A stretch of 64,000 bases of DNA from IMG/VR virus record IMGVR_UViG_3300027821_000007, positions 1-64,000 of that record, one strand, 5' to 3'. This document shows, piece after piece, positions 1,925 to 21,931 of the stretch. The position numbers were made by a program, and so were the translations under genes. The DNA comes from a virus. The first letter of the stretch is position 1; the number at the start of each line of letters is the position of its first letter. Under the pieces are notes generated by a model. That model did not search any database, was not told where the DNA came from, and saw only the letters and a program-made list of their open reading frames with translations.

Positions 1925-2857
1925 TCAGGGCAGCGACGAGACCGCATCGTCGGCAATGATCTTCCATTGCATGATGCCGGGTCGCTGGATCGGGATCTCC
2001 GGCAACGCCGGATCGGGAGGGATGGGGTCTGGAGCCATGATGGCGATCGGCGCCTCGGCCACGGGCTCCTGGGCAATTCGCTCCGGCAGCTCGTGCTGAT
2101 CAGAAACCTGATCTACAAGCCCGGAGACCTGATCCAGTAGCTCCATGGCGTCGGCCGACGCCCGCTTGGCGTTCCAGCCATCCATCACGTGCATCGGCGT
2201 GTACCAATGCTCCTCCATTTTCGTGCTCAGGGCATTGCCCCGATAAACGATTGCCGGAATGCCCAACAGCGACAGGTGCACGTACGTCATGTGGACGCAG
2301 TGCGGATCTATGTCGACCGCCGAGACATGCAGGTGTTTCTGGAAATTTATGCCTTCATCCTTCAGGACCTTGGCCGCAGCCAGGACCATTCCACCGGCAC
2401 CGCAGCAGGGCTCCATCACAGTGATGAAGCCCTTGCGGCCCATGACTTTGCGGATGTCTTCACCCGAACAGAGGTTCATCTTGGCCATCATCAGGCAGAG
2501 ATGGAATGGCGAGAAGAACTGTCCCCAGTGCTTCATGGCGCTCGCGCTGCCGAGCTCGAGCCGCGACATGATCGCCTGCAAAGGCGGTTCGTCGAAGTCC
2601 TGCATGGCCAGCGAGAGCAGCGCCATCATCTCAGCCATCTTGCGGGCTTCCTCTTTCGAGTATTTGCCCACGATGGTCATGTAGCGAGCCTCGCGTTCGT
2701 CATATTGTCTGATGTCGACGGAATTGGAGATAGCTAATGCGCACATCTCCACCCAGTCGCAAAACACATGGTCGACGCGGTGACGGGAGTCGAAGGAATT
2801 CAGGGTCCGCGCCAACTCATCCAGAGGAGGGCGCGTGACTTTTTGCAGCTTTGACAT
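1925..2857 (-). CDS. N6-adenine DNA methyltransferase-like protein lacking the catalytic NPPY/F motif
   Basis: GQFFSP, EPCCGAGGM (motif I), AVDID and GNALS present; no (N/D)PP(Y/F) downstream. Confidence 0.75.
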   Translation of the reverse strand: MSKLQKVTRPPLDELARTLNSFDSRHRVDHVFCDWVEMCALAISNSVDIRQYDEREARYMTIVGKYSKEEARKMAEMMALLSLAMQDFDEPPLQAIMSRLELGSASAMKHWGQFFSPFHLCLMMAKMNLCSGEDIRKVMGRKGFITVMEPCCGAGGMVLAAAKVLKDEGINFQKHLHVSAVDIDPHCVHMTYVHLSLLGIPAIVYRGNALSTKMEEHWYTPMHVMDGWNAKRASADAMELLDQVSGLVDQVSDQHELPERIAQEPVAEAPIAIMAPDPIPPDPALPEIPIQRPGIMQWKIIADDAVSSLP

Positions 2858-2860
2858 GGT

Positions 2861-2912
2861 TGATGTCTCTCTGCCGGGCGGGATTGCCCGGAACCTTGCG
2901 GTTTCGGCATCA
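2861..2912 (-). ncRNA. hammerhead-like RNA, circularly permuted (type II topology)
   Basis: RNA: UGAUGCC-GAA-ACC gcaa GGU-U-CCGGGC..GCCCGG-CAGAGA-GACAUCA, 3 nt before the AUG at 2857. Confidence 0.6.
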
Positions 2913-2968
2913 GGACGACGAAAGCCCCGCCGCCTCGCGGCAACGGGGCTGGAAAACCCTTACACGGT

Positions 2969-3172
2969 TCAGTCGCCTATTGTTCTCGAAAGCGAAAATT
3001 CGGACAGCACCTCCATCACCTCGTGCGGCTCGGGACAACCCTGGTTTTCCAGAGCGTCCCTAAAGTCGAAGAGCCGACGAATGATGCGTGTCTTGGTTCG
3101 CATTGATGGGGGATCGAGCATGGCGAGCAGCAGGCCGTGCAAGGCTTCCGTTGTGGTCGTCTTTTTGGCCAT
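2969..3172 (-). CDS. hypothetical protein (67 aa)
   Basis: ATG directly follows a leader element. Confidence 0.7.
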   Translation of the reverse strand: MAKKTTTTEALHGLLLAMLDPPSMRTKTRIIRRLFDFRDALENQGCPEPHEVMEVLSEFSLSRTIGD

Positions 3173-3177
3173 GGGAT

Positions 3178-3239
3178 GACCTTTCGCCGGACTGTCAGGC
3201 CGGCTCTCTGCCGCACAGGATTGCCCTGTGCGAAAGGTC
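3178..3239 (-). ncRNA. hammerhead-like leader RNA (type III topology)
   Basis: GACCU-U-stem I-CAGAGA-stem II-GAA-AGGUC. Confidence 0.65.
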
Positions 3240-3277
3240 GGGAAGGAACCCGCGCCGGTGAGGGCGCGGGCCCAGTT

Positions 3278-3427
3278 TCAGATGCCGTGCAGCTTTTTGA
3301 ACTTCTTGAGGTCTTGCAGCGATCTGCTCGATGCGCTCGACCTCTGCTGCAGCTTCTTGAGGAGTTGCGGCCCAACGACGGGCCCGTACTTCTTTATGAA
3401 GCTTTTCAGAGTGCGGATGATTTCCAC
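3278..3427 (-). CDS. small basic protein (49 aa, GTG start)
   Basis: Manual translation MEIIRTLKSFIKKYGPVVGPQLLKKLQQRSS...KKLHGI; AAAGGAG adjacent; below ORF-track cutoff. Confidence 0.6.
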   Translation of the reverse strand: MEIIRTLKSFIKKYGPVVGPQLLKKLQQRSSASSRSLQDLKKFKKLHGI

Positions 3428-3429
3428 CT

Positions 3430-3480
3430 CCTTTCACCCGGGTTGTTCCCGGGATCATCTGCCCCGCGGTGCGGGGAAGG
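3430..3480 (-). ncRNA. hammerhead-like leader RNA with 7-nt core CAGAUGA
   Basis: CCU-U-CCCCGC..GCGGGG-CAGAUGA-stem II-GAA-AGG. Confidence 0.6.
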
Positions 3481-3487
3481 CGCCCGC

Positions 3488-3727
3488 TTACGCGGGCGTC
3501 GGCTTCTTGCTGACGATGCGGCAATAGGGCTCTTCGCATTCGATCCATACCCGGGCCCCGCTCTTGAGCGGGGTGTCCGGCGCATAGACCACGCGCGCCT
3601 GGCCCTCGATCTCGACCTCCGAGGCCGAGATGCGCCGTCCGTTTCGCATGATGCTGATGGGTGGGGTGCGGTCGCCAGATTTCTGGTTCGCCGCTATGAT
3701 ATGGCGATTGATGTAGATCTTTGCCAT
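3488..3727 (-). CDS. conserved phage hypothetical protein (79 aa)
   Basis: IYINRHIIAAN...RVVYAPDTPLKSGARVWIE pattern, which I recall as recurrent in phages. Confidence 0.8.
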   Translation of the reverse strand: MAKIYINRHIIAANQKSGDRTPPISIMRNGRRISASEVEIEGQARVVYAPDTPLKSGARVWIECEEPYCRIVSKKPTPA

Positions 3728-3731
3728 AGCG

Positions 3732-3944
3732 TTACTCTTTCAGGAAAGGGTTTGGATCTTCAGGAATGAAAGCGCGCTGATACAGCCGGGCAATTTCTTC
3801 CATTGCGAGGATCACGGTGAACACCGCGTTGGTGCCATCCGGCCCAAGGCCGATGACTTCCATCTCGACGCCCCACCGATCGGCCCCGACAAAACGGACC
3901 GTGCCGGCTTCCAACAACTTTCTATCGCGTTGCTTGATGATCAT
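3732..3944 (-). CDS. hypothetical protein (70 aa)
   Basis: ATG follows a leader element. Confidence 0.7.
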   Translation of the reverse strand: MIIKQRDRKLLEAGTVRFVGADRWGVEMEVIGLGPDGTNAVFTVILAMEEIARLYQRAFIPEDPNPFLKE

Positions 3945-3949
3945 GGTTT

Positions 3950-4004
3950 GCCTTTCGCCGGCATGCAGCCGGCTCTCTGCCGTGCGGGGATCCGCACGAA
4001 AGGC
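3950..4004 (-). ncRNA. hammerhead-like leader RNA (type III)
   Basis: GCCU-U-UCGUGCGG aucc CCGCACGG-CAGAGA-GCCGG cugcaug CCGGC-GAA-AGGC-aaacc-AUG. Confidence 0.65.
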
Positions 4005-4009
4005 GCCCG

Positions 4010-4342
4010 CTAAGCGGGCGTCCCGAAAACCACCTGTCCTGGGAACAGGTAGTCTTCTGCTTCTTCATCGTCGGGCTTCATGCCTGATGAGTTGTCGAGG
4101 CAGTTCTCGAGGACGACTTCCGCCGCCTCGACCAACTCCGCGTCCAGCAGTACCGTGTAGGGAAAGGTCGGTACGTTGCTGTCCGGGTAGCCGGTCTCCT
4201 CGATCAACCTCAGCAGCGCATCGGCCCGGGCGATCTCGAACGGGTCCGCGTTGTCGCGGACGACCTCCTCCATCCCCTCGGCCATGCTGTGAAAGACACA
4301 GAGGGCGCGAGGGTCGGGGAAGGTGATGATGTTGGCTGGCAT
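4010..4342 (-). CDS. acidic hypothetical protein (110 aa)
   Basis: ATG follows a leader element; D/E-rich. Confidence 0.75.
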   Translation of the reverse strand: MPANIITFPDPRALCVFHSMAEGMEEVVRDNADPFEIARADALLRLIEETGYPDSNVPTFPYTVLLDAELVEAAEVVLENCLDNSSGMKPDDEEAEDYLFPGQVVFGTPA

Positions 4343-4348
4343 TGGGTT

Positions 4349-4403
4349 TGCCTTTCGCCGCGATCAGGCGGCTCTCTGCCGGACCCAGCGGGGCCGGAAG
4401 GCA
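4349..4403 (-). ncRNA. hammerhead-like leader RNA (type III)
   Basis: Same core and three stems with different stem sequences. Confidence 0.65.
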
Positions 4404-4430
4404 CCTGCGCTGTCGGGCGCAGGGCCGGGC

Positions 4431-4655
4431 TTAGTAATGCGTGAGGCGATAGCTGAACTGCGCCTCGGGGAGGTTCTTCAGCATGGTCATAAGCCGACCC
4501 TCGGCCCACATGTCGATCCGCTCCATCGGGGCATCGCCAGGGAATGGCGCCTCCTCGATGCAATAGAGAACGAACACGTGGTCGGCTGGCGAACGGACCA
4601 TGAAGGTCACGTACCAGCGTGTCGCGGCGTCGGAACAGGTGATATTGATTGCCAT
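4431..4655 (-). CDS. hypothetical protein (74 aa, MAINITC...)
   Basis: Start 4 nt after the stop of the upstream gene. Confidence 0.6.
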   Translation of the reverse strand: MAINITCSDAATRWYVTFMVRSPADHVFVLYCIEEAPFPGDAPMERIDMWAEGRLMTMLKNLPEAQFSYRLTHY

Positions 4656-4659
4656 CGCA

Positions 4660-4884
4660 CTACCACTGCCAGTTGGATGGAAGTCTCTTGTGGAGATCAT
4701 CGCATCGTTTTTCGAAATACAGGGCGTCGTTGATCTGGCCCGCAACCCGCATCAACATCGCCGCCCGCTTGTTGTGGGCGAAATCGAGCAGCACTTGCAG
4801 GTGGGTGGCGAAATCCGCCAGGTCCTCCGGCATCATGTTGTCCGCATTGATGTTGTCGAGGTCGTAGGCGAACGCGTTCGCCAT
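4660..4884 (-). CDS. hypothetical protein (74 aa)
   Basis: ATG follows a leader element. Confidence 0.7.
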   Translation of the reverse strand: MANAFAYDLDNINADNMMPEDLADFATHLQVLLDFAHNKRAAMLMRVAGQINDALYFEKRCDDLHKRLPSNWQW

Positions 4885-4888
4885 GGAA

Positions 4889-4945
4889 TTTCCTTTCGCC
4901 CAGTCAGGGGCTCTCTGCCGGTCGCCGTTATGGGCCGGGAGGAAA
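4889..4945 (-). ncRNA. hammerhead-like leader RNA (type III, NUH=CUC)
   Basis: UUUCCU-C-stem I-CAGAGA-GCCC cugacu GGGC-GAA-AGGAAA. Confidence 0.65.
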
Positions 4946-4976
4946 TGAGTGATGGTGGGGGCATCGCCCCCACCAG

Positions 4977-5312
4977 CTAGGACGCGCTAATCGTGTGTTC
5001 GAGAAACACCGCCATGCAGTGAACCAACCGCTTCCGCCGCGCTTCAAAATCCTTGGCCGGAATGCTGCGAATGTTCGCCAGCAATTTGTGGGTTTCCTCG
5101 AGCAACACAACAGCCGCGATGATGTCCTTGGCTGCAAGCGCGGTTCGCTCCGCGTCTTCAGCCCGATATTTCAGGTCGTTATGGTCCGTCTGGTTTACGT
5201 CGTTGGCTCGCGCATCGGCCAACTCGTGCAACCGGTCAGCCTGCGCATCGGCAAGGATGACCAGTTCGTCGAGAAGCTCCATGCTGATCACGACGACTTT
5301 CTGGTGGGACAT
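4977..5312 (-). CDS. hypothetical helical protein (MSHQKVV...)
   Basis: Start reassigned to the ATG right after the leader element. Confidence 0.7.
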   Translation of the reverse strand: MSHQKVVVISMELLDELVILADAQADRLHELADARANDVNQTDHNDLKYRAEDAERTALAAKDIIAAVVLLEETHKLLANIRSIPAKDFEARRKRLVHCMAVFLEHTISAS

Positions 5313-5316
5313 TCGG

Positions 5317-5373
5317 TGCCTTTCGCCGCAGTCAGGCGGCTCTCTGCCGGTTGCCGTTATGGGCCGGAAGGCA
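5317..5373 (-). ncRNA. hammerhead-like leader RNA (type III)
   Basis: UGCCU-U-stem I-CAGAGA-GCCGC cugacu GCGGC-GAA-AGGCA. Confidence 0.65.
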
Positions 5374-5389
5374 GCGATAGGCGGGCGCG

Positions 5390-5689
5390 TCACTCGGACG
5401 CGCCGCCGTCATCAGTGGGGTGAATTCGCCACGGCGGGTCGACGAAAATGCGCTGGTTCCGGTGTTCCGGCTCCAGCGTGTGCTTGGTGATCATGCGCGG
5501 GATGAGCTCATCGAACTTCGTGTGCATCACGTGCACCTGTCCCTTCGTGAGAAACTCGTCCCACATACACCGGAACGGGTCCGGGTCCGGGGACCCCCGC
5601 TTAGCACTGTCCATGCGTTCGTCGCGCTTGTCGGCGACCTTCTCCAAGGTCATCCGCAACCGGCGTGGATACTTCTTCGGTTTGGCCAT
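5390..5689 (-). CDS. hypothetical protein (MAKPKKY...)
   Basis: Start reassigned to the ATG after the leader element. Confidence 0.7.
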   Translation of the reverse strand: MAKPKKYPRRLRMTLEKVADKRDERMDSAKRGSPDPDPFRCMWDEFLTKGQVHVMHTKFDELIPRMITKHTLEPEHRNQRIFVDPPWRIHPTDDGGASE

Positions 5690-5692
5690 GTT

Positions 5693-5751
5693 TGGCTTTC
5701 GCCGGCACACAGGCCGGCTCTCTGCCGGACCCGTCATGGGGCCGGAAGCCA
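5693..5751 (-). ncRNA. hammerhead-like leader RNA (type III)
   Basis: Stem III covaries to UGGCU/AGCCA; core CAGAGA. Confidence 0.65.
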
Positions 5752-5788
5752 GTCGAGATGGACGCGGGAGCTTGCGCCCCCGCGCCGC

Positions 5789-6610
5789 TCAGGCGTCGAG
5801 ATCCTCGATCGCCTTGTGAACGACCGCTGACCGCTTGTCGATTTCGTCCTCGACGGACCCGAGGTCGGGAAACATGCCGCGGATCGCGGCGACCTGATGG
5901 TCGATCATCTTGATCACGTCATGCAGGTTTTCCCGCTCGGCCTCGTCACGCACCTTGAGCGCGTTGGCGACGAACTCGGCGGCCCAGGGCCGCAAGAAAC
6001 CACGCGGATGCTTGAGCGGATGGTTCTCCAGATTAGCCAGAATCGTGCGGCGGATATTGGTGCAGATCTCCATGTAGGCCGCATTGAGGCGCCCACCCGG
6101 CTTGACGACTTCGTCGTCCTGCGTGGTCGGCCACTCCTTCATGGTGAAGATGTCCCTGATCGGGACGCCCTGGAGCACGGACAGCGTGTCAGCCGCGGCC
6201 CACCGGAATATCTCCTGGTAGTCCTCGGGGATGTCCGCATCCTTGATGGTGTTCCCCAGCGCATGCAGGATCTCGGCACGCCCGACCATCTCGTCAGGAC
6301 GCCCGCCGCCAAAAGCGATCAGGGCGCGCTGGTGATAGGCCAGTCGCTCGACCTCCACGATGCGTTGCATATGAGGCTGGTTGGGGAAACTTCTCCAGGT
6401 CACCAGAGGGCCGGCGAGGATCGCCGATTGCTTTTCGGCAACCGGCCTGCTGAACCCGAGCATCGCGTGAATGTCGCGAAATAGGGACAGGCTCTCGGGC
6501 GGCACGCCATAGAGGGCACACTCCGCGAGCACGAGCGCGAAGAAATCGCTTTCCTTCGCGGTCTGCATCAGAGGGTTCCGGAGCATTCGGATGATGTCTG
6601 TTGATGGCAT
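5789..6610 (-). CDS. hypothetical protein (273 aa)
   Basis: Long ORF with natural composition; ATG after a leader element. Confidence 0.8.
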   Translation of the reverse strand: MPSTDIIRMLRNPLMQTAKESDFFALVLAECALYGVPPESLSLFRDIHAMLGFSRPVAEKQSAILAGPLVTWRSFPNQPHMQRIVEVERLAYHQRALIAFGGGRPDEMVGRAEILHALGNTIKDADIPEDYQEIFRWAAADTLSVLQGVPIRDIFTMKEWPTTQDDEVVKPGGRLNAAYMEICTNIRRTILANLENHPLKHPRGFLRPWAAEFVANALKVRDEAERENLHDVIKMIDHQVAAIRGMFPDLGSVEDEIDKRSAVVHKAIEDLDA

Positions 6611-6613
6611 TGG

Positions 6614-6678
6614 TTTGCCTTTCTCCCGGGTATGCAGCCGGGTTCTCTGCCGTGCGGGGGATCCGCACGAGAGGCAAA
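6614..6678 (-). ncRNA. hammerhead-like leader RNA (type III, NUH=CUC)
   Basis: UUUGCCU-C-stem I-CAGAGA-stem II-GAA-AGGCAAA. Confidence 0.65.
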
Positions 6679-6719
6679 AGCGTGAAGGGGTCCCAACGAG
6701 CGTATCGCTGGGACCCGGT

Positions 6720-7271
6720 TCAGGATCTGTCGAGGAACTCCCACTCGGGAGCGTCCTCGGGGGCCGCGTCGGCTATCTTCAACGGGCCCGAGGTTTCGAT
6801 GGCGCCATGGGTGGCGTCCATCATCGCAGTGGCGTAGCGGCTATAAAGCTCTGTTCCGAATTCTGTGTTTTCGCGAACGAGACGCTTCCACAAAGCCTTT
6901 ACGTCGTGTTCAGTCTTGGCTTTCAGGCGGATCCGGACGGAAACCGGACGGTCCTGAACCAGGAACAGGTCCATCTCATAGAGATGAGGGGCCAGTTCCT
7001 CGCGGGTGGTGACTTGTTGGGTTTCGATCTTGCGATACTCGGAAACCGAGATCGCGACGTCGTAGAGGTCCTCGAAGCTCAGGGCTTCGTCGGTATCCTC
7101 GTGCGGTTTGACCACCGCCTGGCCGCCCGGCAACCCAACGAGGACCGTCAGGTTATGCAGCCGGGCGTGGAGGATCATGTTGGCTGAATCCGTGCCAACG
7201 GCTTGCCTCATGCAATCGAGGTGTTCGAGCTGCTCGGTGGGGTGGCCCTGGCGGAAGACCGACATCTGCAT
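6720..7271 (-). CDS. hypothetical protein (183 aa)
   Basis: Abuts the upstream gene; GGAGG RBS. Confidence 0.75.
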   Translation of the reverse strand: MQMSVFRQGHPTEQLEHLDCMRQAVGTDSANMILHARLHNLTVLVGLPGGQAVVKPHEDTDEALSFEDLYDVAISVSEYRKIETQQVTTREELAPHLYEMDLFLVQDRPVSVRIRLKAKTEHDVKALWKRLVRENTEFGTELYSRYATAMMDATHGAIETSGPLKIADAAPEDAPEWEFLDRS

Positions 7272-7272
7272 G

Positions 7273-7782
7273 TCAGGCCCTCCGCTGGTCGGTGAGAAGG
7301 TAATACGGCTGGACGTTGATGATTTTAACGTCCTCGATGGCCGTCACGTCGCCGATTTCCAGTTTTCCCATCAGGGAGGAGATTTCCTCCGGCTTGATCT
7401 GGACAAAGAAGTCCTTGGGGCGGGGTTGCTGTCCCGTGAAAACGTCGTGGACGGTGCCCTTGACGTTGTGGTCGGAATGACCTCGACACTGGATCTTCAC
7501 TGGGACAATGAGCGTGAGCTCGGCGTCCACCAGGTAATCCTGTGTCATGCGCTTGGGTTGGGACAGCATGAGATGCTGCTGGATCGGCTCGGCATATAGT
7601 TCTCGTGGACTTCGCCATACTTTGGCGGGGCCGTCCGTGAGTTCGACAACTCGTCTGACGTTGCCGCTGAGCTCCCACAGGAGGTCCTCGACCACGTCCT
7701 TGTCGGCCAGCATGCTCAACAGGGTGAGCCCGCTGACGTTGAGGATTTCGCCGTTGTCCTTGTGGATCATGAAATAGGACAT
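7273..7782 (-). CDS. hypothetical protein (MSYFMIHKD...)
   Basis: Start reassigned to the ATG after the permuted leader element. Confidence 0.75.
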   Translation of the reverse strand: MSYFMIHKDNGEILNVSGLTLLSMLADKDVVEDLLWELSGNVRRVVELTDGPAKVWRSPRELYAEPIQQHLMLSQPKRMTQDYLVDAELTLIVPVKIQCRGHSDHNVKGTVHDVFTGQQPRPKDFFVQIKPEEISSLMGKLEIGDVTAIEDVKIINVQPYYLLTDQRRA

Positions 7783-7783
7783 G

Positions 7784-7860
7784 GGGTTTCCTTGTCTACC
7801 CGACGGTGCGCCGCGGTATGCGTCGCTTGCCTGCCGGAAACCTTGCGGTTTCGGAAACCC
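7784..7860 (-). ncRNA. hammerhead-like RNA, type II topology, U3-A8 core (UAGACAA)
   Basis: GGGUUUCC-GAA-ACC gcaa GGU-U-UCCGGC..GUCGGG-UAGACAA-GGAAACCC-c-AUG. Confidence 0.6.
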
Positions 7861-7918
7861 GTCCCGGGGTGGCCTGGCGTAGCCAGGCGTAACCATACGG
7901 GGCGATATTCGTTACGTA

Positions 7919-7947
7919 TATATGGCGATTATGCCGAGATGGATCAA
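7919..7947 (-). promoter_or_regulatory. putative leftward promoter TTGATC-N17-CATATA
   Basis: Heads the leftward operon; shares CATAATCGCCATAT with the site at 18453-18481. Confidence 0.5.
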
Positions 7948-8367
7948 CCGGTTATCGACAATATTGTGGTGGACCTGAAATTCTCCGCTTGCGCGCGCCG
8001 GGCGTGGTGCTAGGTTTCCGGCTTCGCCGAAAACGAGTGAAGGCCCGGCGAGGACCGGGCCTTCGATCGATTTGAGGCGGAAAACTAGGCTTCCGGGTGA
8101 ATCAAAAGAGGATAGATAGGTCAGGCACGTCGTCCAGCAGTCTCCTGATATATAGATAACGCTCCACCCTACGCAAGCGTTTGTAGGTCAAGGCACCTCA
8201 CCCGGGCATCACACCGCCGTATGACAACCGTCATGCGGGCGTTACACCGGGGGGAGGAAACCGTCCCATGCGTGCATGCACAATTTCGATTTCGGTGGTC
8301 CAGCCGCATGGGAAAGCACGCGTCGACGTGAAGGACGTGATGCTGCCCTCCTTGTGAGGGGGCGGCC

Positions 8368-17875: not shown

Positions 17876-17908
17876 GACCGAGTTCGTTAGAACGGTCTCA
17901 ACGGGGTT
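17860..17908 (-). terminator. intrinsic terminator for a leftward transcript
   Basis: AACCCCGUUGAGACCG...CGGUCUCAGCGGGG followed by a U-tract on the - strand. Confidence 0.7.
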
Positions 17909-17964
17909 AGGTGGTAATCAGAAGCGTAGATCGCGTTGGCAGATCAACGCTTCAATGGGGGTTT

Positions 17965-18029
17965 GGTTTCGACTGGCACGTGGGGGCACCAGCTCGTCTG
18001 CCTGCTTCCCATCAAGGGCAGCAGAAACC
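17965..18029 (-). ncRNA. hammerhead-like RNA (type III, core CAGACGA, NUH=GUU) inside the large ncRNA
   Basis: GGU-U-UCUGCUGCCC..GGGAAGCAGG-CAGACGA-GCUGG..CCAGUC-GAA-ACC. Confidence 0.55.
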
Positions 18030-18452
18030 TGGCCGCACCGCCAGGCGCCCGCCGGGGGCTAAGGCCCGGCGTAATGCAATTTGCCTGTGCAAGCACAGGC
18101 GTAGCTTTGCGGCACCTAACGGTGCGACCACCCGCCGTTCCCAGCTACCCGGATCATGCCTGGGCGGGGCACCTCCATCCTTGCGGTCGGAGGAATTTTC
18201 TAGGGGGAACGGCAAGCTGGCCAACCCATCGACCGCCCCGGGCCAAAAGCCAGGGCGCCGGCCGCGTGACTGGCAGCAGGACATTGCTACATGAGCGAGG
18301 ACATGCCGGTGGTCGCGGTATCGACGGATTGAAATTCTAGCTGACCAAATCTCCAAACCCCGGTGGCCTGGAGAACCTTTTCGGCGCCCCTTGCGGGGCA
18401 GCCTATCGGCACTAACGGGACCGATGGTCGACCGTTGATCAACTCTGATAAG

Positions 18453-18481
18453 GATATGGCGATTATGTAACGGTCCTTCAA
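18453..18481 (-). promoter_or_regulatory. putative promoter TTGAAG-N17-CATATC
   Basis: 17-nt spacing; shares 14 nt with the site at 7919-7947. Confidence 0.5.
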
Positions 18482-18495
18482 GGCTTTTTTGCAAC

Positions 18496-18528
18496 AAAAA
18501 ACGCCCCGCGAGGATCTCTCGCAGGGCG
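18496..18528 (-). terminator. intrinsic terminator after the 18534-19157 gene
   Basis: CGCCCUGCGAG..CUCGCGGGGCG followed by UUUUUU. Confidence 0.7.
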
Positions 18529-18533
18529 GAATT

Positions 18534-19157
18534 TTATGCGCGTGAGCGCAGCGCATCGATCTGCGCAGGAAGATGCGCATAACCATACGGACGATACACA
18601 ATCCGCGCCGCAGGCTTGTTCCAATCGTCGACCAGAAACTCAAAGGTCGCGGTGCCGTCAAGGCTGTCATCAGGGTCGAGCTTGTAAAAGCTATGAGCCT
18701 TGGCGAAGGCCAGAGCTACCCGACACGACAAATGCAGCATGTCAGCGGTGGAAACCTGCGGCAGCATGCCATGCTCGGTCATCGGATCCTGGGTGGGATC
18801 ACACAGACTTTGCGGGTCGAGGGCATGCTCGGCGGTCCAACTCGCCATCCAAGGACGGGGCTGGAAGGATATCGCGTGGCCGGCGCCGTCCTCTATGCGG
18901 ACGATCGCACGCTGAACCTCAGCGCGAAACGCGAAACAGGCGAGTATGGCAAGGCCCATTTGAACGGCCTCCTCATACGCCTTGGGTTTTGGCCTGGGTT
19001 TGCCCAGGCGCTGGTGATACAGCGGCATGCGAAGCGCCAGGAGCGTATTGTTATAGGCGGTCCACAGCAGTTTATGAGGCCGGGTCGTCGCCGGCAGGCT
19101 GTGGAACGGCGCCGTGGTACGCAGGTCTTCGACTATGCCAGCTATTATGTCGGGCAT
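18534..19157 (-). CDS. hypothetical protein (MPDIIAG..., 207 aa)
   Basis: Start reassigned to the ATG after the leader element. Confidence 0.75.
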   Translation of the reverse strand: MPDIIAGIVEDLRTTAPFHSLPATTRPHKLLWTAYNNTLLALRMPLYHQRLGKPRPKPKAYEEAVQMGLAILACFAFRAEVQRAIVRIEDGAGHAISFQPRPWMASWTAEHALDPQSLCDPTQDPMTEHGMLPQVSTADMLHLSCRVALAFAKAHSFYKLDPDDSLDGTATFEFLVDDWNKPAARIVYRPYGYAHLPAQIDALRSRA

Positions 19158-19160
19158 GGT

Positions 19161-19224
19161 TTGCCTTTCGCTTCCAGTGGCAGGGAAGCTCTCTGCCCCA
19201 CATGGGATCATATGGGAAAGGCAA
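19161..19224 (-). ncRNA. hammerhead-like leader RNA (type III)
   Basis: UUGCCU-U-stem I-CAGAGA-GCUUCC cugccacu GGAAGC-GAA-AGGCAA. Confidence 0.65.
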
Positions 19225-19261
19225 TAAGGAAAGGCCCCACCCGAAGGCGGGGCCATGGCAG

Positions 19262-19678
19262 TCAGAGCGGAACGCCGCGAGGACGAAATTCCTGGTCCTC
19301 CTTTTGCTCCCACCTCTCGGGCGGCAGCATGTCGATCGGCGTGTCGTCGTCGGGGTGATAGAGCACCGGCGCCCACATTTTGGCGTCCTCCCAGAAACTC
19401 AGCCCGTCCTCCACCTTGAGGGCGTAGTCGAGCTGCTCCTGGATCGTGCTGTCATAGCCGCACTGGACTTCGTAGTAGGAGCCGAAATCATGCGCCATCG
19501 AGGCGACGAATAGTCGCACCCCCTCGGGCGGCTCACCGAAAACACGCTTGAGCGCCGCGATGTAGGCGCGGCATTCGATCTTCTGCACATGCGCCCAATC
19601 GTACTTTTTAGAGCCGGTCGCGGCGCATGGTTCCTCGGAAGGGGTTGTTCCGATGTAGACGAGACCTCGTGTGTTCAT
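19262..19678 (-). CDS. conserved phage hypothetical protein (138 aa)
   Basis: IGTTPSEEPCA...ECRAYIAAL...HDFGSYYEV. Confidence 0.8.
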   Translation of the reverse strand: MNTRGLVYIGTTPSEEPCAATGSKKYDWAHVQKIECRAYIAALKRVFGEPPEGVRLFVASMAHDFGSYYEVQCGYDSTIQEQLDYALKVEDGLSFWEDAKMWAPVLYHPDDDTPIDMLPPERWEQKEDQEFRPRGVPL

Positions 19679-19687
19679 GAGGTATTG

Positions 19688-19749
19688 TCCCTTTCGCGCC
19701 CAGCAGCAGGGGCGCTCTCTGCCCCATGCCGAATGACATGGGAAAGGGA
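19688..19749 (-). ncRNA. hammerhead-like leader RNA (type III)
   Basis: Stem III UCCCU/AGGGA; core CAGAGA. Confidence 0.65.
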
Positions 19750-19859
19750 TGGGTGGCTTCAGCCATGCCGCGCGGATCGCAGCATGGGTGGCATGTGGGG
19801 AAGCCTCCGGAGAGGCGGGGGAATGAGGGGGCCGGCCCCGGCGGGACCAGCCATGCCGC

Positions 19860-19952
19860 TCATTTGACGATGAAGCCCATGATGAGAAGCCAGGCCCCTA
19901 AGAGCCAGGCCCACCACGGGACATAGAGCAGGGCGCAGGCCAATAGGAACAT
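19860..19952 (-). CDS. 30-aa membrane peptide
   Basis: MFLLACALLYVPWWAWLLGAWLLIMGFIVK; AAGG upstream. Confidence 0.5.
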   Translation of the reverse strand: MFLLACALLYVPWWAWLLGAWLLIMGFIVK

Positions 19953-20064
19953 TGGTCGGTTGCCTTGTGCTGGGGGTTGCAAAAGAAACGCCCCACCCCG
20001 GAAAGGGCTGGAGCGCTTCTCATAAATGGTGATCAATCGTATTGATTGCAATGTAGGAATGAAG

Positions 20065-20101
20065 AAAACCCCCAACCCTTCGATGAGGGCTGGGGGTTTT
20101 T
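20065..20101. terminator. bidirectional terminator
   Basis: AAAACCCCCA...TGGGGGTTTTT. Confidence 0.65.
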
Positions 20102-20105
20102 CTGT

Positions 20106-20411
20106 TCAGCTAACGACTTCGGCGTCGACCGGAGCGGCTTTGGCCTTCTTCTCCTTGGCGGTGAAGGGCCATACGGTCTCGGGCTTCTCGAAGCGGATGT
20201 TGCTGACTTTGCGGTAGAGGTACTTGGTCGACTTGACGGTGCCGTAAGTGGCGCCGCCGACGACCGCGAGGCCGCCGATAACAACAGCCGACTTGCCCAG
20301 GTTGTAGAACCCAGCCTCGACACCCCAGCGCAGGTTTTCGCCAGCGCGGCGGAGCGAGATGAAGGGACGAACAGCCTTGACGGCATCGGCAACAGTGGTT
20401 GTGTCAAGCAT
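20106..20411 (-). CDS. single-TM hypothetical protein (101 aa)
   Basis: GGAGG RBS; AVVIGGLAVVGGATYG. Confidence 0.75.
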   Translation of the reverse strand: MLDTTTVADAVKAVRPFISLRRAGENLRWGVEAGFYNLGKSAVVIGGLAVVGGATYGTVKSTKYLYRKVSNIRFEKPETVWPFTAKEKKAKAAPVDAEVVS

Positions 20412-20420
20412 TGTAGCCTC

Positions 20421-20482
20421 CTTGGTTTCGCCGGCCTTTTCTAGAGAAGCCGGCTGATCTCCCCCCGCGAGGGGGTACCAAG
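20421..20482 (-). ncRNA. hammerhead-like leader RNA with G3-C8 core (GAGAUCA), NUH=GUA
   Basis: CUUGGU-A-CCCCC ucgc GGGGG-GAGAUCA-GCCGGC..GCCGGC-GAA-ACCAAG-gaggcuaca-AUG. Confidence 0.6.
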
Positions 20483-20624
20483 TCTTTTCGCTTGTGTTAT
20501 AGATATAGGGTTTAGTTGTATAAATGCAAGTGTTTTGTGTGATTTTGTTGAATAAAATCAGTATTTTATGCGCTTTTGAGGGGTCCGGCCCCGATCCCTG
20601 TGCAGGATCGGGGCGAACTTCTCA

Positions 20625-21023
20625 CTAAACGTGCGAACGCGGAGCTGGATGCAGCCGCTGCAACGTCCGGCGAAGCGCCTTACGCGTCTCCTCCGGCACG
20701 TCGTCGTTCAACGACATCTTGACGGCAGCACGAAAAACATCGCGCTGGCCCTCGAGATACTTGATGGCTTCGACCGGAATTTCCTCCGAAGCAAGCAGCA
20801 AGCAGAGAACAACGCTATTGCGCTCCCTGCGCATCCCACTCTGCGAACGCAAGCGGGAAAGAAGCCCGCGACCCTCCTCGGAAACGATGTGATACCCCGC
20901 CGTGATGACAATCGCACTCGCCGCAAACCCCACGGCATAAGCCATGGAGCCAAGCGACTTGCCATTCGTCATCCGGCGGACCGCATCGCCACCGTTAAGG
21001 GGCGCATCGGTGCCAAAACTCAT
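20625..21023 (-). CDS. single-TM hypothetical protein (MSFGTDA...)
   Basis: Start reassigned to the ATG after the leader element. Confidence 0.7.
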   Translation of the reverse strand: MSFGTDAPLNGGDAVRRMTNGKSLGSMAYAVGFAASAIVITAGYHIVSEEGRGLLSRLRSQSGMRRERNSVVLCLLLASEEIPVEAIKYLEGQRDVFRAAVKMSLNDDVPEETRKALRRTLQRLHPAPRSHV

Positions 21024-21029
21024 TGGTTT

Positions 21030-21091
21030 TGCCTTTCGCACCCCAGTAGCAGGGGATGCTCTCTGCCAGCCCCGGAAGGGACTGAAAGGCA
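21030..21091 (-). ncRNA. hammerhead-like leader RNA (type III)
   Basis: Core CAGAGA; loop II CUGCUACU. Confidence 0.65.
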
Positions 21092-21121
21092 CGGTCCGGG
21101 ATTACCGGACCGCTTGGGTTC

Positions 21122-21241
21122 TCAGAAGCAGCGGTATTTACCGCCGCCTGTCGAGTAGCAATAAGCATCGGCGCTATGCGAGTACGCATAGCCGCCGGCA
21201 AGGGCCACAATGACACTGAGAGCGAGCAATATTCGCTTCAT
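21122..21241 (-). CDS. 39-aa secreted peptide precursor with two Cys
   Basis: Manual translation MKRILLALSVIVALAGGYAYSHSADAYCYSTGGGKYRCF*; follows a leader element. Confidence 0.65.
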   Translation of the reverse strand: MKRILLALSVIVALAGGYAYSHSADAYCYSTGGGKYRCF

Positions 21242-21249
21242 TTGGTTTT

Positions 21250-21305
21250 GCCTTTCGCGTCCAGTCAGGGACGCTCTCTGCCAGCTCCGGATGGAACTGA
21301 AAGGC
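21250..21305 (-). ncRNA. hammerhead-like leader RNA (type III)
   Basis: Core CAGAGA; stem II GCGUCC/GGACGC. Confidence 0.65.
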
Positions 21306-21334
21306 GACCCGCGCAGTGGCGGGCCTCCGGAGTG

Positions 21335-21550
21335 CTAGCACCTCCAGTAAGGGCAACGATAAACAACGACCGGCGGCGTGTAATAGTAGCTTGGCTGGCT
21401 CGCCGAATAGACTTCGGCAGCGCCTAACGCAGCAGCGCCGACCCCTAAGGTAACAGCGCCGATCGTGTGCCAATCCACCGAACCATCGGTGTTGCAGCCG
21501 CTGAGCAACATGCATATGCATGCCGTCACTAGCTTCCTTGTGTAAGACAT
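21335..21550 (-). CDS. small lipoprotein
   Basis: MSYTRKLVTACICMLLSG-C lipobox; glycine-zipper-like segment. Confidence 0.65.
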   Translation of the reverse strand: MSYTRKLVTACICMLLSGCNTDGSVDWHTIGAVTLGVGAAALGAAEVYSASQPSYYYTPPVVVYRCPYWRC

Positions 21551-21560
21551 TTGGGGGTCT

Positions 21561-21619
21561 GCCTTTCGCATCCATTCAGGGACGCTCTCTGCCGGTCCCC
21601 GGGATCGGGGCCGAAAGGC
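21561..21619 (-). ncRNA. hammerhead-like leader RNA (type III)
   Basis: Core CAGAGA; stem II GCGUCC/GGAUGC (G-U wobble on the - strand). Confidence 0.65.
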
Positions 21620-21645
21620 GACCCGCGATGCGGGCCTCCAACCCG

Positions 21646-21864
21646 CTATGCGGGCTTTTTCCGAGGGGCGAAGATCGCGGCGAGGATCGCGCCGAAAGCG
21701 CCAGCGGCGTTCAGCATGTTGACCTCGTCCCAGAGCTTCTTGGCCTCGTCGTCAGGCAGTGCCTTGAGCACCTTCTGAATGGCGACGGCCTGGTTGGCCT
21801 TGTCTTCCGTCTCCGTGAGGTAGTGGAAGAGATGGCTCTTGGGGCCGTTGAAGGGATTGTACAT
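21646..21864 (-). CDS. hypothetical protein with C-terminal TM (MYNPFNG...)
   Basis: Start reassigned to the ATG after the leader element. Confidence 0.7.
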   Translation of the reverse strand: MYNPFNGPKSHLFHYLTETEDKANQAVAIQKVLKALPDDEAKKLWDEVNMLNAAGAFGAILAAIFAPRKKPA

Positions 21865-21870
21865 TGGCGT

Positions 21871-21931
21871 GTGCCTTTCGCGCCATGCAGGGCGCTCTCT
21901 GCCGGACACCCGTGTCGGGGCCGAAAGGCAC
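21871..21931 (-). ncRNA. hammerhead-like leader RNA (type III)
   Basis: GUGCCU-U-stem I-CAGAGA-GCGCC cugcau GGCGC-GAA-AGGCAC. Confidence 0.65.

Follow-up and report, generated by a model that had tools for sequence, protein, structure and literature searches.

A pseudoknotted RNA element with hammerhead topology at gene starts of an uncultured phage and its relatives

The DNA analysed here (the window) comprises the first 64 kb of the 91.5-kb uncultured-virus record IMGVR_UViG_3300027821_000007, which is estimated to be 89% complete. Sixteen copies of an RNA element of 55-70 nt, located ahead of small minus-strand open reading frames (ORFs), were accepted in two minus-strand gene blocks of the window. 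The copies share the recurring words GGCAGAGA and GAAAGG, and the former occurs 14 times on the minus strand compared to 2.2 times by chance. In the numbering frame of the type III hammerhead, which is applied throughout, the element has type III topology and keeps most of the core identities: G5, A6, A9, G12, A13, A14, A15.1-U16.1, a base other than G at N17, and complementary bases at N3 and N8. Together with its position, this makes the element probably a new hammerhead-derived RNA module at the cistron starts of long phage transcripts. The original prediction had interpreted the copies as hammerhead-like, and the shape and most of the core bases bear this out; however, a pseudoknot between N3-N4-G5 and loop II had been overlooked.

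The fold was obtained as an RNAalifold consensus of 15 aligned copies with no structure hint supplied. A 5-bp closing helix ending in U-A (stem III) leads through a single unpaired base into hairpin I; the unpaired hexamer CAGAGA connects this to hairpin II, and the unpaired triplet GAA leads from there into the return strand of the closing helix. This consensus, along with covariation, confirmed the predicted order of stem III, U-H, stem I, core, stem II, GAA-A and stem III. The stems were also predicted to vary while pairing is kept, and this was borne out in two sets of copies. In 59 copies, 91.9% of cells were paired, compared to 69% when shuffled and 34-44% when slid, and in the 53 distinct metagenome copies (alignment A7), none of which was used to build the covariance model R1, 94.4% were paired compared to 78%; compensatory cells numbered 223 versus 72 and 115 versus 24, respectively, although these cell counts exceed the number of independent events because copies in one genome are kin by descent, and the pseudoknot class counts given below are safer. 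Copies ahead of an orthologous 273-amino-acid (aa) gene in three phages have unrelated stem sequences and the same fold, and the 273-aa proteins behind the copy at 6612 and its orthologous copies (sister phages G002 and G003) are 50-52% identical. Covariation lends strong support to all three helices and to a junction that is open at stem III.

The covariance model R1 was built on the 15-copy window alignment, and with it 15 full-length copies were recovered from the window (31.8-70.7 bits; E 1e-17 to 1e-6), every one of them on the minus strand; the rest of the 91.5-kb record contained no further copy by R1. The minus-strand starts given in the original prediction agree with the low-coordinate ends of these matches (3178, 3430, 3950, 4349, 4889, 5317, 5693, 6614, 17965, 19161, 19688, 21030, 21250, 21561 and 21871), and 16 of the 18 copies claimed there hold, 15 by R1 and one, at 20421, by a structure descriptor in which N3, N4 and N8 were left free and G5, A9, G12, A14 and U16.1 were fixed. 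The 20421 copy is a divergent member of the family, accepted because of its descriptor fit, its matching loop II complement and its close relatives elsewhere (L136 and L072:3438-3508). The remaining two are not members. The sequence claimed at 2861 (2850..2893, minus strand) is a remnant consisting of a stem I-like hairpin and GGCAGAGA, without stem II or GAAA (R1 9.4 bits, E 1.8; weak fold, z -1.2), and the sequence claimed at 7784 (7779..7862, minus strand) has no R1 match and its junction bases are not hammerhead-like. The latter folds, in what is likely a 5' leader, into a three-way junction of another kind (z -2.6), whose closing helix buries the Shine-Dalgarno (SD) sequence AAGGAAA of the first gene of its block. 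Tandem short units at approximately 11500-11900, which end in GAGCG(C/T)AGC and contain GAACCG, were false matches of the first sequence pattern.

Outside the record, an exact-pattern scan followed by R1 identified 8, 18 and 17 copies in three sister phages of 98-105 kb, and 63 further copies were found on soil and peat metagenome contigs. More sister phages were sought via the conserved 273-aa protein behind copy 6612, and only the two known ones were returned. The host clade is probably Alphaproteobacteria, because copies are present in chromosomal islands of two uncultured alphaproteobacterial metagenome-assembled genomes (MAGs); one of these islands lies amid ordinary metabolic genes. A low-sensitivity scan of 151 genomes from the order of the island-bearing MAG, in which 35 candidates were scored for each genome, added a single genome, with 3 copies. 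The MAG island L105 (G005 contig 41, ~22-31 kb) carries copies on both strands in divergent gene blocks, with the core subtypes CAGAGA, UAGAAA, GAGUUCA, GCGUACA and CUGUUGA, and is flanked by fatty-acid and carboxylase genes.

The bases that are held constant in the element are those that matter in a hammerhead. U16.1-A15.1 was invariant in 58/58 copies of alignment A4 and 53/53 of alignment A7 while the other stem III pairs covaried, G12 was present in 55/58 and 53/53 copies and A14 in 57/58 and 53/53, and G5 and A9 were invariant or nearly so; the invariance of G5, A9, G12, A14 and U16.1 was taken from these model-based alignments and not from the descriptor. Position N17 was U in 39, A in 9, C in 7 and G in 2 copies of A4, and U in 48 and C in 5 copies of A7, so that the prediction that this base is never G holds except for two copies, both in doubtful alignments. 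When N8 was left free in the scan, N3/N8 was C-G in 63 copies, G-C in 13, U-A in 2 and non-Watson-Crick in 3, and this complementarity was kept while N6 and N7 varied. Natural hammerheads likewise show U3-A8 covariation as well as a U10.1-U11.1 mismatch (PMC3088659), and when a true hammerhead was subjected to pairwise mutagenesis, the CUGA region was rescued only by the G3-C8 swap (PMC9901934). Because the invariant bases are those required by hammerheads and N8 tracks N3, the element appears to be descended from a hammerhead. In addition, one copy in G003 has the fully canonical core CUGACGA, and the Rfam type III model could be aligned with this copy over its full length, at 23.7 bits (E 0.003 in a 131-nt search), below the gathering score of 48.5.

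The second defining feature of the element is an H-type pseudoknot: the first bases of loop II are the complement of N3-N4-G5 in 54/60 copies. Core CAG was matched by loop II CUG in 53/56 copies, GAG by CUC in 10/10, GCG by CGC in 3/3, CUG by CAG in 2/2, CGG by CCG in 3/6 (with two more having wobble CUG), and UAG by CUA in 1/3; the pseudoknot is thus supported by five independent covarying triplet classes at two positions among ~80 distinct copies. The linker is 3 nt (A6-N8-A9) in ~80% of copies and longer in variant cores, stem II is 5-6 bp in 71/81 copies, loop II is 6 nt in 39/81, and in 46/79 the pseudoknot can grow to 4-6 bp by reaching into the base of stem I. Both window copies with a 7-nt core (3424-3483 and 17960-18028) are without a loop II complement. 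An extended stem III was considered as an alternative state, and the identity of N1.1 showed no clear relation to pseudoknot length. The pseudoknot accounts for the A at position 4, because A4 faces a loop U; the original prediction that this position is always A is correct for the window (16/16) but not across the family, where N4 covaries with loop II. G5 and its loop partner are constant although N3 and N4 covary freely, and this suggests that G5 may have a role beyond pairing. Crossing stems, short linkers, covariation and a position next to the ribosome-binding site are features that the element shares with H-type pseudoknot translational elements.

The element has a regular position relative to genes. 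The usual order is stop codon, GC hairpin, element, ~6 nt and AUG, with the ATG 7-15 nt past A15.1 in 55/59 copies and ORFs of 39-273 aa behind. In the main subtype, stem III is formed by the SD sequence AAAGG, on its 3' side, and an anti-SD-like CCUUY. In 41/53 copies, the 45 nt upstream of stem III contain a GC-rich hairpin (-12 kcal/mol or lower) that ends just ahead of this stem and usually follows directly on the previous stop codon. Genes that are translationally coupled are without the element. No sigma-70-like promoters or intrinsic terminators were found across 2900-7900, and, as in clustered hammerhead arrays, several copies flank single genes in one transcription unit. Conservation extends to the spacer between SD and ATG, which reads GGCACACC.. 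in most of the metagenome copies and GGCAAACC in those of the window, and this hints at a further constraint on the initiation region.

We favor, with a probability of about 45%, the reading that the element is a pseudoknot-gated hammerhead derivative. The RNA would switch between a pseudoknot-locked state and a hammerhead-like state with N3 and N8 paired, and the hammerhead-like state would self-cleave 3' of N17. Cleavage would split a polycistronic early or accessory transcript into single-gene mRNAs. At its 3' end, the upstream product would have a protective hairpin and a terminal 2',3'-cyclic phosphate; the downstream product would have a 5'-OH, followed by stem I, pseudoknot and stem II in a compact stack. 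Stem III, of 5 bp, would then dissociate, and the SD sequence would be freed for ribosomes.

A number of observations weigh against self-cleavage of this kind. The pseudoknot occupies N3, N4 and G5, which the hammerhead active site needs, and it is incompatible with the N3-N8 pair. The family does not keep the hammerhead core strand C3-U4-G5-A6-N7-G8-A9: A occupies position 4 throughout the 16 window copies and in ~87% of the family (G, C or U in the remainder), position 6 is U in the G3 subtype, position 13 is C in six copies, and N7 is absent from most of the family and from 13 window copies, the original prediction having counted 14 copies with a 6-nt core where complete copies number 13. 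In some G3 copies, N17 is a C that could pair with G3. In comprehensive mutagenesis, all single and double mutants of the CUGA turn had low activity, with the exception of the C3-G8 swap (PMC9901934). The canonical-core copy in G003 may be due to chance, as N4 covaries freely and U4 is found in 2 of ~100 copies. Rfam hammerhead models gave no match to the A4 copies at the gathering score or at E<=10 (two regions; 611-nt sub-region), as anticipated in the original prediction that standard searches would miss the element. No other convincing Rfam family was found in the same regions; weak partial matches to M23 RNA (21.5 bits versus 41.2 needed) stem from a hairpin followed by GAAAGG and were rejected. 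A literature search for U4A hammerheads or a pseudoknotted phage variant returned nothing specific. Finally, the SD sequence of the G3 subtype is a few bases downstream, outside stem III, and unmasking is therefore not universal. Judging by the pseudoknot and the altered positions 4, 6 and 7, the classic active site is at least not the resting state; the element may still work as a hammerhead. The two alternatives of the original prediction, a new hammerhead variant class and a hammerhead-derived regulatory fold, are about equally likely.

A non-catalytic, hammerhead-derived structural module, in which the three-way junction and the pseudoknot build a stable fold at the start of every cistron, is nearly as likely as the favored reading. 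Such a module would set translation by masking or presenting the SD sequence, uncouple cistrons, block 5'-end-dependent decay, or serve as a protein site; in the last case it would be bound or cut by a phage or host translational repressor, helicase or endonuclease, and any cutting would be done by the protein and not by the RNA. The pseudoknot is the best-supported tertiary feature and occupies N3-N4-G5, and the sizes of stem II, loop II and the 3-nt linker fit H-type pseudoknot geometry, while positions 4, 6 and 7 are outside what hammerhead catalysis tolerates (PMC9901934). Stem III hides the SD sequence in the main subtype, and an SD sequence is likewise buried in the unrelated junction at 7779-7862, so that structural masking seems to be a habit of this phage. 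However, a non-catalytic module leaves unexplained why the hammerhead-essential G5, A9, G12, A14 and A15.1-U16.1 are invariant, why N8 tracks N3, and why N17 avoids G. It also gives no role to the GC hairpin upstream of most copies, and no candidate binding protein was found among the genes behind the elements (no family matches).

A sensor (riboswitch-like, RNA thermometer or ion sensor) that binds a small molecule or ion, or melts as the temperature changes, and so switches all early genes together via SD access is improbable. H-type pseudoknots that hide the SD sequence are a common riboswitch design, as in the SAM-II, preQ1 and fluoride classes, and the junction bases of the element are highly conserved; however, the conserved bases are those of the hammerhead and not those of any known aptamer, there is no Rfam match, the SD sequence is unmasked in the G3 subtype, and we know of no precedent for a sensor that recurs ahead of 16-22 unrelated genes of a single genome. 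Least probable of all is a DNA-level feature with an incidental RNA fold, such as a repeat that marks the boundaries of shuffled gene cassettes or a site of recombination. The copies do lie between orphan genes that are not the same in each sister phage, and their number varies from 8 to 18; however, they are strictly strand-specific and at a fixed distance from start codons, compensatory changes keep RNA pairing with G-U pairs included, and orthologous copies with unrelated stems leave little DNA identity to recombine on. RNase III sites were also rejected, as the helices are too short for them, and so were a tRNA mimic for RNase P, which would need an acceptor-like end, and intrinsic terminators, since only 3 U follow the upstream hairpins.

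Among known systems, the start-associated sequences (SAS) and extended SAS (ESAS) of Cluster K mycobacteriophages are likewise a conserved motif directly upstream of many starts in one genome; SAS are, however, a short motif with flanking inverted repeats, without a hammerhead-like junction or pseudoknot, and their host clade differs from that of the element. The type III hammerhead itself (RF00008, clan CL00010) shares with the element the junction open at stem III, the order of parts, G5, A6, A9, G12-A13-A14, A15.1-U16.1 and H at N17, as well as the usual G10.1-C11.1, the U-U at 10.1/11.1 in some copies and the complementary N3/N8. The element differs in having A (or C, G) at position 4, N7 mostly deleted, U6 in one subtype and N3-N4-G5 paired with loop II, and in having no evident loop I-loop II contact and no Rfam match. 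Close natural counterparts are the clustered hammerheads flanking single genes in Agrobacterium and Azorhizobium prophages, which cleave in vitro (Perreault et al. 2011, PMC3088659). These also lie between small genes of phage polycistronic units, alphaproteobacteria included, show U3-A8 covariation and U10.1-U11.1, and were proposed to process transcripts into single-gene mRNAs. They have consensus cores, occur in groups of two or three and have been shown to cleave, whereas the element is present in 8-18 copies per genome with a changed core and an added pseudoknot, and is fused to the ribosome-binding site. In engineered hammerheads that carry an anti-SD sequence (the Wieland and Hartig design), a hammerhead helix hides the SD sequence and self-cleavage switches translation on (PMC10381313), much as cleavage of the element would free its SD sequence; those switches are artificial and use the canonical Schistosoma core, whereas the element is natural and its activity putative. 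RNA viruses also carry self-cleaving ribozymes directly upstream of viral ORFs, in 5' untranslated regions, where they are needed for translation initiation (PMC13725137), but these are eukaryotic, canonical and concerned with cap-independent initiation, whereas bacterial SD unmasking is proposed for the element.

The accepted copies of the window are listed in Table 1.

Table 1. Accepted copies of the element in the window. MFE, minimum free energy.
Position	Strand	Assignment	R1 (bits)	Core	Loop II	ORF behind	Other features
21868..21931	-	element copy	64.0	CAGAGA	CUGCAU	72 aa	ATG 11 nt past A15.1
21556..21621	-	element copy	67.6	CAGAGA	CUGAAU	71 aa	
21245..21307	-	element copy	70.0	CAGAGA	CUGACU	39 aa	MFE fold is the three-way junction, z -3.7
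21026..21092	-	element copy	64.3	CAGAGA	CUGCUACU	132 aa	pseudoknot extendable to 6 bp
20421..20482	-	divergent copy, G3 subtype	7.7 (E 5.5, fails)	GAGAUCA	contains CUC		descriptor fit; GGU-A; G3-C8 swap; N7 present; G10.1-C11.1; GAA-A
19684..19750	-	element copy	60.0	CAGAGA	CUGCUGCU	138 aa	
19158..19224	-	element copy	68.2	CAGAGA	CUGCCACU	207 aa	5-bp pseudoknot possible
17960..18028	-	element copy	31.8	CAGACGA (7 nt)	no complement	none	
6612..6677	-	element copy	63.0	CAGAGA	CUGCAUAC	273 aa	
5689..5752	-	element copy	70.7	CAGAGA		99 aa	stem III covaries (GGCU/AGCC)
5313..5374	-	element copy	62.1	CAGAGA	CUGACU	111 aa	
4886..4945	-	element copy	54.0	CAGAGA		74 aa	N17 = C
4345..4404	-	element copy	68.6	CAGAGA	CUGAUC	110 aa	
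3945..4006	-	element copy	67.2	CAGAGA		70 aa	MFE fold is the junction, z -4.0
3424..3483	-	element copy	34.0	CAGAUGA (7 nt)	no complement		U10.1-U11.1 mismatch
3174..3240	-	element copy	64.9	CAGAGA	CCUGACAGU	67 aa	

The core of the copy at 3424..3483 equals the hammerhead consensus except for U4A. The divergent copy at 20421..20482 directly follows an AT-rich promoter-like stretch, and its SD sequence, AAGGAGG, is partly inside stem III. The copy at 17960..18028 is within an ORF-poor, highly structured minus-strand region (17860-18528) bounded by a strong terminator at 18528-18502 and by a hairpin with a T-run near 17860-17908. Approximately 94 nt of this region (roughly 18239-18332) are 74% identical to G003:37109-37204, and the region may be a stand-alone phage non-coding RNA.

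Ten genes headed by or near elements were compared with PHROGs and Pfam, and only a 310-aa N6 methyltransferase was matched. This protein, encoded at 1928-2857 on the minus strand by the last gene of an element-bearing block, after the 2861 remnant, has an N-6 DNA methylase domain (Pfam E 3e-6; phrog_5696 E 3e-68) and likely has an anti-restriction function. The minus strand carries a 14-nt hairpin core, GAAACCGCAAGGTT, in two identical copies, at 2892-2905 and 7839-7852. One precedes the methyltransferase gene that closes the 7.9-1.9 kb block, and the other lies in the leader ahead of the gene that opens it; the loci fetched from the sister phages did not contain this hairpin core. A promoter-like motif (CTTGAA or TTGACA, ~17 nt, TACnnAAT, then C-CCATAT) lies upstream of several leaders, at ~18450-18500, 7915-7940 and 20490-20560, at L072:3395-3435 and, in L136, upstream of the G3 copy. 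This shared motif is probably the early promoter of these phages, and it was not reported by a simple sigma-70 scan. A scan of the window for tRNA and transfer-messenger RNA genes found none. In sister phage G001, two adjacent tRNA genes are present at L068:1474-1650. A weak match to Y RNA-like (YrlA) RNA overlaps the second of these genes, which scores 30.5 bits and contains an insertion of 33 nt in its anticodon arm region.

The purpose of bacterial and phage hammerheads is a long-standing question, and here a hammerhead-like fold is fused to ribosome-binding sites, heads almost every gene in two phage gene blocks, and carries a pseudoknot that competes with the catalytic pairing. It is possible, and we propose it tentatively, that a hammerhead lineage has been rebuilt around the pseudoknot, either as a gated ribozyme that would separate and activate up to ~18 genes per phage or as a new self-cleaving fold that retains G5, A9, G12, A14 and A15.1-U16.1 but does without the U4 turn and N7. 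If either were true, the view of the CUGA turn as indispensable would be overturned, and the element would be the first natural case of ribozyme-controlled SD release. The ~80 distinct natural variants already supply compensatory mutants. If the element cleaves, the U4/N7 part of the core would be replaceable, one long transcript would become many separately stabilized and translationally activated mRNAs, and the phages would hold a natural counterpart of the ribozyme insulators and anti-SD switches of synthetic biology. If it does not cleave, the element would clearly exemplify the co-option of a ribozyme fold for translational control.

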